IMG/VR virus record: IMGVR_UViG_2660238078_000006
Direction: 5' to 3' (one strand)
Length of the DNA: 11,065 nt
From: a virus
Lineage: Duplodnaviria > Heunggongvirae > Uroviricota > Caudoviricetes
Positions 6,001 to 9,000 of this stretch are shown here, piece by piece. A program made the position numbers. Within the stretch, counting starts at the first letter, position 1. Each line of letters starts with the position of its first letter.

Positions 6001-9000
6001 ATTAAACAGCGTGCGAAGATGAATAACAGGTCGCTGAACTCAGAGATAATTGCAGCGATTGAAGAATCACTGGATAAACAAAACTCTGCATCAGTTTACA
6101 TTGACGATGCAGAGCGTATGGCAGAACAACAATCCGATATGGTTAAGAAAATTGTCTTTGATACGCTCAAAGAGCTATATAAAAAAGACAGCAGCTAACC
6201 ATCAGTTACGGAGGATTTATGCAAAGAGATATGCTGAATATTGCGTTCTACATATTTGGTTTTTGCACGTTCCTGGTGTTTGCGAAGCTATTCTGACAAC
6301 GCATCAGACTTGGCACCCTGAGTCAGGGCGTTAATGGCCTTTTGCGCCTGCTGCATGGCTTTCTCAAACGCTGTTGATCCGCGTGGGGTGTTTGCCATTC
6401 GGAGCATTGCATTTCTGAATGGTTCGCTCTCATAGGCGCGAGTAAGAAGTCCGTAGCTTACTGCTGCGCCAGTTGTCGCCGGGTTCATTGCCGTCCCATA
6501 CCCGATAATGAACGGGATGGTTTGCTGCCCTGTTGGTGTTGTTACTGCCGCTTTTGCTGCCTGCTGAGTGGACTGAAGGTAATTTTTCAATCCTTTCAGA
6601 TAAGCAGCGTCCTGCCCCTTAAATGTGATGCCAGTCTGGTTTTGCAGGATGTTAAGCTGCCGAAGGAACTGGTCAGGGGATCCGCCAGATTTCTCCATCG
6701 CCTTTCCAATGATGCCATTGCGCATTTGCACCCTGCCAACACGACCAACTGAGTTATACAGCGTCTTAATTTCCGATTTGTTCTTGCTGAATAGCATGTT
6801 GTTGACAACTTCCGGCGTCAGGTCGCCTTTCATGAGAACATTCTTCAGCCTGGTATTCTTTAGTTTCGCCGCTTCGTCAGCGTAGACGGCATTGGCCTGC
6901 TGATATTTACGGAGAGTATCGTTGCCAAGATTCTGACCAATGGCACCATTGATATCGTCGGTCATCGCCTTGTAAACGCGCTGAATGGCAGCATCGGAAC
7001 GGTTTGGTAGCACTGGTCTCTCACCCTTCACGTCCATTCTGAACTGGCTGCGTAGATCGCTTAATTGCTTCAAATCCAGATTTACCGGACCATCAGGACC
7101 AGCATTGCGAATAAGCTCATCACGATAGGATTGAAGTTTTGAAATCGTCTCGTTATCAGCGACCTTACCAAGCTTCTGCAGGTTAGATATCTCAGTATCT
7201 ATCTGCTGAATTGCTCTGGCAGGTTGAATGTTGATTCCTGCCATTGCATTCTGTACCTGCTCAAGACGGTTCCCAGCAGCACGACGAATTCCTGATGTTT
7301 TCGCTTTAAGGCTGTCAATAACAACAGCTGGATCATACTCACCGAATTTATCAGCAAATCTCTGCACCAACTGGCTTCTCGCTTCCTGTTGCGTTGCTCT
7401 CATTCCGCTTGTGCCAGCCAGAGGGATATTTTCTGCTGTAGTCTGCGCCATTTTTCCGACGCGGGAAGTTGGTTGTAACAGGTCTGTGGTGTGCAGAGGA
7501 ACTCCTTCACGCTCTGCAAATCTGATAGCCTGCTGCGCTTCTGGCGCGATAGCGCCACGAACGCCACGATAAGCAGCACCTAATCCACGTCCGGCAGCGT
7601 TAATAGCACCGCCAGCAAGTACACCAACGCCTAAATCGGTGGCGAGTGCTTCCGCATCATCTTTCGCACTATTTGCAGCAAGTGATCCAACTGCGTTTTC
7701 AGCGAGAAGGCGAGTTGCCCCCTGAGCAATTCGACCAGCAAGTGTTGGTGCCTGTGCTGCCGCTCTCTCAACGCCAGCAGGAGTGAGGTAAGGCAATGCT
7801 TCAGCAAATACCCTTCCCTCTGTCGTTTGTGGAGTCAGCGCACCTTGCTGAAGGCCAAAGTCCTGCTCTAATCCCTGCGTTGTTACTCGTGGCGCTGGTT
7901 GATATGTCCCATCGCCAATGCCGAGTTTACCGCCAGCCCAAGCCGCCGCGCTCGTTACAGCATCGGCAACTGATGCAGGTATATTTGCCACGTTCACGCC
8001 AGCCTGCACCAGTCCGCGACCAGTCTCTTTTACTGCTTCGCCAAGATCAGACATAAATCCACTTTGCTGTGGTTGTTGCTGTGCTACTGGTTGTTGTGTC
8101 TCCACTGGCTGCACAGATGGCAATGGATAGGCAGCATAGAAAGCTTGCTTAGCCTGCTCTGCATTTTCTCCGGCTTGCGGGGCCACGACTTCATTGAAGT
8201 ATTGCTCCTGAGCCTGCGCTTTTTGTTCTGGTGCTAACGCCTGATACTGTGGAGAGGCGATAACATCTTTCCATGCTTTAGCCATTAATCACCCCATAGT
8301 GAAGAAAAGTTACTGCTGGCTGCTGGCTGTGATACCTGTGCAGGTTGAGATTGCTGCCGCTGAGATTTACCAACATTAACGTTATATTGTTGGTTGTAAT
8401 TGTTGGTGTATTCCTGAATCTCACGAATCGACTGCTGCATAGCCTCCGGGCTTGAATAGTCAACCTGCGGCATCCCCTGAAAATACATCTTCGCTTCTGC
8501 AACGGTGTTAATACCACTGGCCCCCATGTCCCTTGCTGCCGCCACACCCTGATTCTGCATTCTGCCCTGAATACGTTGTGCTGAGTTATATAACTGGCGC
8601 TGCTCTTTTCCTGTTAATCGGCTGCGAACATCAGCACCAATTGCCGGGTTACCTGCGCCGCCGGTCATTCCTGTCATGAAATCGAGAGCAGAAGCGTCTG
8701 CATTTGCGATCGCGTCGATATCCTTCTTCATGGCATAGTTTTGTGCTGATGCAGACGATGTTGCAGGAGCAGCGATTGAACTGGCAGGAACGCGAACCAT
8801 ATTCCCCTCGTTATCGATGCCTTCGTAGAACGCATTAGCCCCAGCGCCGTGAAGTTTCCCGCCTACCGTTACCGTTCTACCATCTGCCAGTTGCACAACA
8901 TTCTCCCCGCCAGCATCAGGACGGCCTCGAACACGAAGATATGTCTTTTGTTGCTCTGGAGACAGGCTGTTGAAATATTGATATTCTTTAACAGATGCAG

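Follow-up and report, generated by a model that had tools for sequence, protein, structure and literature searches.

In this study, we analysed a stretch of 11,065 nt from a tailed phage (Caudoviricetes; IMG/VR virus record IMGVR_UViG_2660238078_000006), referred to below as the window, and followed up a very short open reading frame (ORF) in it, here called the mini-ORF, which lies between an mnt-like gene and the gene of a gp16-type DNA-ejection protein. The mini-ORF occupies positions 6219-6296 of the plus strand, with 25 codons and a TGA stop (6294-6296), and encodes the peptide MQRDMLNIAFYIFGFCTFLVFAKLF. A Shine-Dalgarno sequence, GGAGG, is located at 6210-6214 and is separated from the ATG at 6219 by the 4-nt spacer ATTT; in the predicted mRNA fold this GGAGG was mostly unpaired. 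The peptide begins with a polar head of four residues (MQRD), and the remaining ~21 residues form a hydrophobic tail; its residues 5-25 had a grand average of hydropathy (GRAVY) of 1.89 and contained one predicted membrane helix.

Upstream on the same strand, a 97-codon ORF at 5905-6198 encodes an Mnt/Arc-family repressor (Pfam Arc 3e-14, Repressor_Mnt 3e-14), the true start of which is probably the ATG at 5938. The gap between its stop and the ATG of the mini-ORF is 20 nt, and the two genes are probably co-transcribed. From the other side, the minus-strand gene of the 665-aa gp16-type DNA-ejection (DNA transfer) protein (6288-8285; phrog_770, 1e-238) runs towards the mini-ORF and ends with a TAG stop at 6288-6290. 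Its 3′ end and that of the mini-ORF thus share 9 nt (6288-6296) in a tail-to-tail overlap, where L24, F25 and the stop of the mini-ORF lie opposite the terminal S, E and TAG of gp16. The 3′ part of the window gp16 gene shared about 96% nucleotide identity with the 3′ end of Sf6 gene 13, and the protein is of the Sf6/L/BTP1 sequence type. A preliminary description of the window had reported a GGAGG 4 nt ahead of an ATG, a 25-codon frame running over the gp16 stop and a hydrophobic single-helix peptide, and had noted that sieA occupies this slot in P22; the positions, hydropathy and helix prediction given above agree with it, and in P22 sieA does lie between gene 16 and mnt, in the orientation of mnt. 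It had considered the peptide as a toxin-like factor, an exclusion-type factor or the product of a chance ORF, and these options are weighed below.

To sample the locus, the C-terminus of gp16 alone was used as bait, so that the sample was unselected for the mini-ORF. An intact frame of 23-25 codons was present in 166 of the 167 loci with an Sf6/L-type gp16 C-terminus, in phages from Escherichia, Salmonella, Citrobacter, Kluyvera, Erwinia and Klebsiella; the sole exception was a Yersinia locus, in which the gp16 tail is different. Only lengths of 23, 24 and 25 codons occurred, so that the 25-codon form differs from the 23-codon form by whole codons. The ATG was present in 166 of the 167 loci, and GGAGG, or a longer consensus match containing it, stood at similar spacing in about 95 of the 166; most of the remaining loci had AAGG or AGGA, and a match of at least 4 nt was found in most loci. 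The overlap with gp16 measured 9 nt (81 loci) or 12 nt (83 loci). Among close relatives, with gp16 98-100% identical, the frame was intact in 84 of 84 loci with 29 peptide variants, and the frame of the mini-ORF was the only one of six that was open in all 90 nucleotide haplotypes. Thus the ORF and its ribosome-binding site, whose conservation in relatives the preliminary description had raised as a question, are both conserved, the latter as a match in most loci.

The frame also persisted over greater distances. Distant gp16 homologues with 76-78% aa identity over the C-terminal 250 residues, from Erwinia dacicola, Citrobacter, Pseudescherichia, Kluyvera and an Escherichia sp. isolate, carried a 23-codon version, M[EDN]RD[LW]LNFAFLIFG..., in the same place and usually with GGAGG and 4-nt spacing. 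The segment GGAGGATTTATG was common to the window and the 23-codon forms of other genera, and the 23-residue form was found by tblastn in phages BTP1, L, ST64T, ST104, g341c and MG40. A pattern search of viral contigs gave 63 hits, 60 of which adjoined the end of an Sf6/L-type gp16; two lay at sequence ends and one was accompanied by a gp16 stub. This last case (locus L227, 2123-2347) is a prophage remnant in which gp16 is reduced to its final 22 codons, whereas the 23-codon mini-ORF is intact and a tailspike gene is kept, with an integrase gene adjacent.

Furthermore, the ATG persisted although what precedes it, up to position -1, falls into three types that are not homologous to one another: in the first an mnt gene and GGAGG come before it, in the second a lipoprotein gene and AAGG, and in the third, that of Sf6, the mini-ORF comes directly after the tailspike gene. 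In nucleotide searches, homology to Sf6, Gally, 720R6 and VSe13 started at window position 6218, one base ahead of the ATG. The window was identical to E. coli strain 81EVA over 6150-6330 (181 nt) and 97% identical to phage IME10 over 5802-6400. The 181-nt region matched 357 of 5,426 complete E. coli genomes, a few of these matches being partial and leaving the ORF uncovered; coverage of the query was at least 80% in 122 of the 357, and about 235 matches were partial, most of them, among those listed, starting at 6218. In Gally (locus L004, 2465-2980), 720R6 and VSe13, the gene just ahead of the mini-ORF is a predicted lipoprotein with a signal peptide ending in LLAGC (phrog_6067). We considered this 171-residue gene of Gally-type phages as a possible SieA relative and rejected it, as it is unrelated to P22 SieA.

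Phage Sf101 (locus L002, 4397-4415) shares the mnt gene with the window, and there homology stops at window position 6206, no mini-ORF is present, and a different ejection protein of 911 residues is encoded only 17 nt after mnt. This combination of mnt with another ejection protein and no mini-ORF indicates that the peptide gene is tied to the type of gp16 rather than to mnt.

The substitution pattern of the frame was of the coding type. Nucleotide diversity at codon positions 1, 2 and 3 was 0.228, 0.113 and 0.466 in the 23-codon group and 0.093, 0.072 and 0.175 in the 25-codon group, and the third-position diversity of the adjacent gp16 codons was 0.462 and 0.134, respectively. Third positions of the mini-ORF therefore drift at roughly the local silent rate, and positions 1 and 2 are constrained. 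With events counted on minimal codon networks, the in-frame ratio of non-synonymous to synonymous changes (dN/dS) was 0.24 in the 23-codon group and 0.55 in the 25-codon group, with binomial p values for the synonymous excess of 1.7e-11 and 0.02; in the other five frames, dN/dS ranged from 0.5 to 3.1. The comparison of synonymous and non-synonymous changes suggested in the preliminary description thus came out in favour of coding. The peptides of the window and BTP1 are identical at 9 of the first 16 residues and share the N-terminal motif MxRDxLNxAFxIFG, with merely two identical codons. When a profile was built from the 23-residue forms alone, it retrieved the window mini-ORF (E=1.2e-6) from a set of 17,392 six-frame segments and hardly anything else. 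A G14xxxG18 motif was present in 33 of 35 variants of the 23-residue form.

One further frame required attention. A reverse frame was open in all 23-codon haplotypes and closed in all 25-codon haplotypes, and we treated it as a by-product: its third codon positions coincide with those of the sense frame, and stops are rare in it because its codons begin with the complement of T-rich second positions. A structured RNA element or terminator at this site was likewise dropped. Folding of both strands showed no unusual stability (z-scores -0.81 and 0.03), a search of the whole window against Rfam at E up to 1 gave no match, and consensus scans found no terminator-like site between mnt and the mini-ORF or after the mini-ORF.

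The preliminary description had expected that standard annotation would miss so short a gene, and this was the case in the records we inspected. The mini-ORF is unannotated in phages IME10, Sf6, Gally, 720R6, VSe13, BTP1, L, phiKp_30 and P6; in the other phage records positive by tblastn, the gp16 gene was the only feature listed under the match; and the RefSeq records of the E. coli genomes among the matches listed do not annotate it. Expert descriptions of the region give it as absent in Sf6 and as mnt plus one ORF in L and ST64T. Exact look-up of ten peptide variants among about 15 billion collected proteins gave no match, an illustration of how genes of this size drop out at length cut-offs. 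No Pfam, NCBIfam or PHROG family matched three peptide variants, apart from an Adipogenin match (E=0.11) at chance level. Considering its conserved start, Shine-Dalgarno sequence and frame together with the coding-type substitutions, we conclude from these sequence comparisons that the mini-ORF is very likely a genuine phage gene, conserved and as yet missing from annotation, and the option of a chance ORF was rejected.

A clue to the role of this gene came from the Salmonella prophage BTP1. STnc6030 of BTP1, a 786-nt transcript highly expressed in lysogens, was described as an antisense RNA without coding capacity (Owen et al., 2020; PMC7067206). It lies opposite the beginning of the tailspike gene and the 3′ end of STMMW_03891, the gp16 homologue. 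Expressed from a plasmid, STnc6030 gave complete immunity to BTP1 and none to P22; its over-expression left the yield of spontaneously induced BTP1 unchanged, which the authors call unexplained; and four escape single-nucleotide polymorphisms (SNPs) fell within 36 bp, all of them non-synonymous in gp16 (PMC7067206). The non-coding label was based on the lack of an ORF longer than 60 aa (PMC7067206). By mapping coordinates, we placed STnc6030 at 403942-404727 of D23580 and the BTP1 mini-ORF at 404321-404250, inside the transcript, and mapping of the published primers placed the mini-ORF and its GGAGG inside the cloned insert. No other ORF on the STnc6030 strand both starts with ATG and reaches 20 codons, and the mini-ORF has a GGAGG ahead of it. 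In the literature on BTP1 and STnc6030, we found no follow-up on a small protein and no mention of the peptide. The link of the mini-ORF to STnc6030 and to one gp16 type is what the present analysis adds to the preliminary description.

The two loci can be compared directly. Both have the same position and orientation, antisense to and adjoining the 3′ end of an Sf6/L/BTP1-type gene 16, and the 23-codon ORF of STnc6030 is homologous to the window ORF by the profile search given above, although homology is limited to the ORF and the gp16-antisense part. The 5′ 400 nt of the BTP1 transcript are antisense to the tailspike gene, whereas upstream of the mini-ORF the window has the mnt and HNH genes and, in place of an antisense start inside the tailspike gene, merely a short tailspike-start remnant. 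The window peptide has 25 residues against 23, and its C-terminal half is different. On the strength of this homology, the 25-residue form of E. coli may be expected to behave like the 23-residue form of Salmonella.

The positions of the escape mutations point to a particular part of gp16. The 36-bp escape window encodes residues 583-595 of BTP1 gp16 (ILGIGTVTNPALV), which fall where that protein is most hydrophobic in a window scan and where it goes longest without a charged residue. The equivalent residues in the window are gp16 593-605 (IIGYGTAMNPATT; 6471-6509, minus strand), within the longest uncharged stretch of gp16. [quoted passage not shown] In our gp16 alignment, P22 P546 fell inside the BTP1 escape stretch and G532 fell 8 columns before it.

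Considering these results, we propose a model in which the mini-ORF would be translated from the mnt transcript in the lysogen and its product, a tail-anchored single helix, would insert into the inner membrane. There the peptide may bind, or interfere with, the glycine-rich uncharged C-terminal segment of incoming gp16 (window residues ~579-615), so that phages of the same gp16 type would fail to complete their DNA-delivery channel. The induced resident prophage would be unaffected, because it has no need to enter the cell. The job would be that of the unrelated 162-residue SieA, which is encoded in the same slot in P22 and is known to block DNA injection (PMC10883804). The peptide is proposed as the effector since it is the product of the sole ATG ORF of that size on the STnc6030 strand, is preceded by GGAGG, and survives changes of upstream context. 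The most economical interpretation is that the target of exclusion is the entering gp16 protein, at the membrane, and not late mRNA; induction would then be spared, single amino acid changes would allow escape, and P22 would not be excluded. P22 gp16 has only 22-26% identity to the Sf6/L type (PMC10883804), and this divergence would account for its insensitivity, in line with the observed specificity. As the mini-ORF overlaps the gp16 stop, each gp16 type of this lineage would, under the proposed model, carry its own matching lock.

We hold the parts of this proposal with different confidence. That the mini-ORF encodes a translated membrane micro-protein, expressed in lysogens and acting on gp16 as a SieA-like exclusion factor, has in our estimate an even chance of being right; translation, location in the membrane and action of the peptide rather than the RNA are steps that we infer. 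More tentatively still, and at slightly less than even chance, we suggest that the exclusion attributed to STnc6030 is in fact carried out by the 23-25-residue inner-membrane peptide binding the glycine-rich uncharged segment of gp16. The exclusion-type option of the preliminary description appears to be the best supported of its three, through the BTP1 insert and the gp16 escape mutations, which bear on it indirectly.

Several observations weigh against the exclusion peptide. The published interpretation of STnc6030 is that of an antisense RNA (PMC7067206), and annotation based on RNA-seq puts the 5′ end of this transcript 406 nt upstream of the ORF. That all four escape SNPs are non-synonymous is weakly informative, as this would happen with a probability of ~0.3 by chance. 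Variation in the peptide runs parallel to variation in the gp16 segment, an association with which physical linkage is confounded. Around the window mini-ORF, the scans showed neither a canonical sigma-70 promoter nor a terminator. Selection is only modestly visible in the 25-residue group to which the window belongs (dN/dS 0.55), and the RD motif at the N-terminus is replaced in some of its variants; the case for the 25-residue form thus leans partly on homology to the 23-residue form.

The alternative that survives best accepts the peptide as real and leaves exclusion to the RNA as published: the antisense transcript, reaching into the 3′ end of gp16, would destabilise the incoming late mRNA, and the peptide would have another membrane role, or its translation would merely stabilise or extend the transcript. 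This model, published for STnc6030 (PMC7067206) and repeated in a 2025 review, agrees with the location of the escape SNPs in the part of gp16 covered by the 3′ end of STnc6030, and the absence of a terminator-like site after the window ORF would let transcription continue antisense into gp16. However, over-expression of the RNA did not reduce the phage yield of the induced prophage (PMC7067206), and one mismatch in a perfect duplex of ~320 nt is not expected to abolish pairing. Every escape SNP alters the protein, at or near sites that match those of escape from SieA in P22 (P546 inside the stretch, G532 just before it), and the RNA model leaves the coding substitution pattern of the ORF unexplained. 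We consider exclusion by the RNA unlikely, though the most probable of the alternatives to exclusion by the peptide.

Several enterobacterial type I toxins (Ibs, ShoB, TisB and Ldr) are likewise overlooked by standard annotation; they consist of 19-35 residues forming one hydrophobic helix, and antisense transcription is associated with them. The mini-ORF peptide resembles them in size and in its computed hydrophobicity, and the convergent gp16 mRNA overlaps its 3′ end; it could thus be a type I toxin-like or abortive-infection peptide that damages the membrane when expression rises upon infection or prophage loss, with the late transcript as antisense control. Unlike in those systems, the antisense overlap is at the 3′ end alone, covering the last 9-12 nt and leaving the ribosome-binding site uncovered, and the peptide matched no NCBIfam or Pfam toxin family. 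Moreover, the BTP1 fragment with the ORF and its Shine-Dalgarno sequence was expressed under the constitutive promoter PLlacO-1 in cells that formed lawns and gave normal spontaneously induced titres, and the exclusion was phage-specific, blocking BTP1 and not P22 (PMC7067206). The toxin-like option is consequently disfavoured, and we regard it as improbable.

That the frame is untranslated and persists by chance, or through conservation of the DNA or RNA as a gp16 3′ untranslated region or late operon element, draws on the shortness of the ORF, the close relationship within the 25-codon group and the 0.16 chance that no stop would arise in that group, but it is highly improbable given a codon-position pattern and dN/dS that are specific to one frame, a frame kept in other genera at 76-78% gp16 aa identity through many synonymous swaps, an ATG and Shine-Dalgarno sequence kept behind unrelated upstream sequences, and the lack of any unusual RNA fold, terminator-like site or Rfam match.

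Other genes are known from the same slot. P22 SieA shares with the mini-ORF the position between gene 16 and mnt and the strand of mnt. In contrast to the mini-ORF peptide, P22 SieA is 162-164 residues long, with three membrane helices predicted, and SieA types have three to four; the family is characterised by ~160-200 residues and the motif FxRYPxEAxxFNK, for which a 25-residue one-helix peptide is too short. SieA also excludes phages with several gp16 types (P22, L, Sf6 and CUS-3), whereas the BTP1 locus spares P22. HkcB of phage HK620 (locus L248, 4314-4643) abuts gene 16 on the opposite strand and has an N-terminal membrane helix, as the mini-ORF peptide would, but it comprises 109 residues of unrelated sequence with a coiled-coil-like tail. 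In a Yersinia aleksiciae prophage, an ORF in the same antisense slot has a GGAGG ahead of it and an N-terminal membrane helix, but it is GTG-initiated, has 43 codons and a coiled-coil-like tail, and is unrelated in sequence (LEIASFVALAAIVYLIRQVGILSNRVSELEKITDRLNDKIN). It lies ~60-190 nt beyond the gp16 stop on the opposite strand (locus L094), with no mini-ORF homologue there, and the architecture of HkcB resembles that of this 43-residue ORF. The antisense slot after gene 16 thus seems generally to encode proteins predicted or shown to be in the membrane.

With regard to expression, the region upstream of mnt (5806-5904, plus strand), delimited by alignment with BTP1 and Sf6, is a candidate promoter region for mnt and the mini-ORF, and it contains one promoter-like site (5810-5838) with a weak match to consensus. 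A sigma-70 consensus scan directly ahead of the ORF in BTP1 gave nothing convincing either. In the 23-codon group, a box, GGTTATAATT, is 80-90% conserved 22-24 nt ahead of the ATG, and this conserved TATAAT box had no -35 partner at canonical spacing. A hairpin between the tailspike start and the mini-ORF was seen in several loci (L181, 2425-2455; L003, ~2955-2985; L090-L095); its arms differ by lineage and stay complementary, being GCACAAG...CTTGCGC in BTP1-like loci and CCGGACA...TGTCCGG in Sf6, and it is followed by a conserved TTGC[AG]T and a TATAAT/TATGAT box. The hairpin may have a role in regulating either the mini-ORF or the tailspike gene.

The window as a whole is a segment of a P22-like (Lederbergvirus) prophage, with gtrA, gtrB, an ORF in the gtrC position, tailspike, HNH endonuclease, mnt and gp16/gp20-type ORFs. 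Matches to GtrA and GtrB, followed by a 421-residue ORF without a Pfam match in the gtrC position, lie at 873-3427; this gtr module serves O-antigen conversion, another lysogen-expressed function that alters the cell surface. The tailspike gene probably starts at M16, near 5209 on the minus strand, and an HNH/AP2 endonuclease gene (5267-5806, plus strand) is located between it and mnt. Just beyond the HNH gene, at ~5808-5822, we observed the remnant of a second tailspike start, GATATCTGACAT (MSDI, minus strand), which suggests that the endonuclease gene was inserted near the tailspike gene's 5′ end; the region 5806-5904 is homologous to the stretch between tailspike start and mini-ORF in BTP1 and Sf6. 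The window has an Mnt-like repressor gene and no arc or ant genes nearby, as has been described for phage L, and mnt may now serve mainly as the first gene of the mnt and mini-ORF transcript.

Taken together, the element can be read as a very small member of the prophage membrane exclusion factors, which offers a new interpretation, open to experiment, of an RNA published as antisense. Should the peptide prove to be the effector, a case of superinfection exclusion reported as RNA-mediated becomes a micro-protein mechanism, and the puzzle noted by the authors, that the resident prophage is unharmed by its own "antisense RNA", is removed. To our knowledge, it would then be the smallest superinfection-exclusion protein, and a minimal tool of 25 residues with which to probe the passage of gp16 across the inner membrane. 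It would add a gene to the heavily studied phages Sf6, L, ST64T and BTP1, in a region described as empty or as mnt plus one ORF, and it would mean that a family of such locks lies unannotated in these phages and in the prophages of several percent of E. coli genomes.

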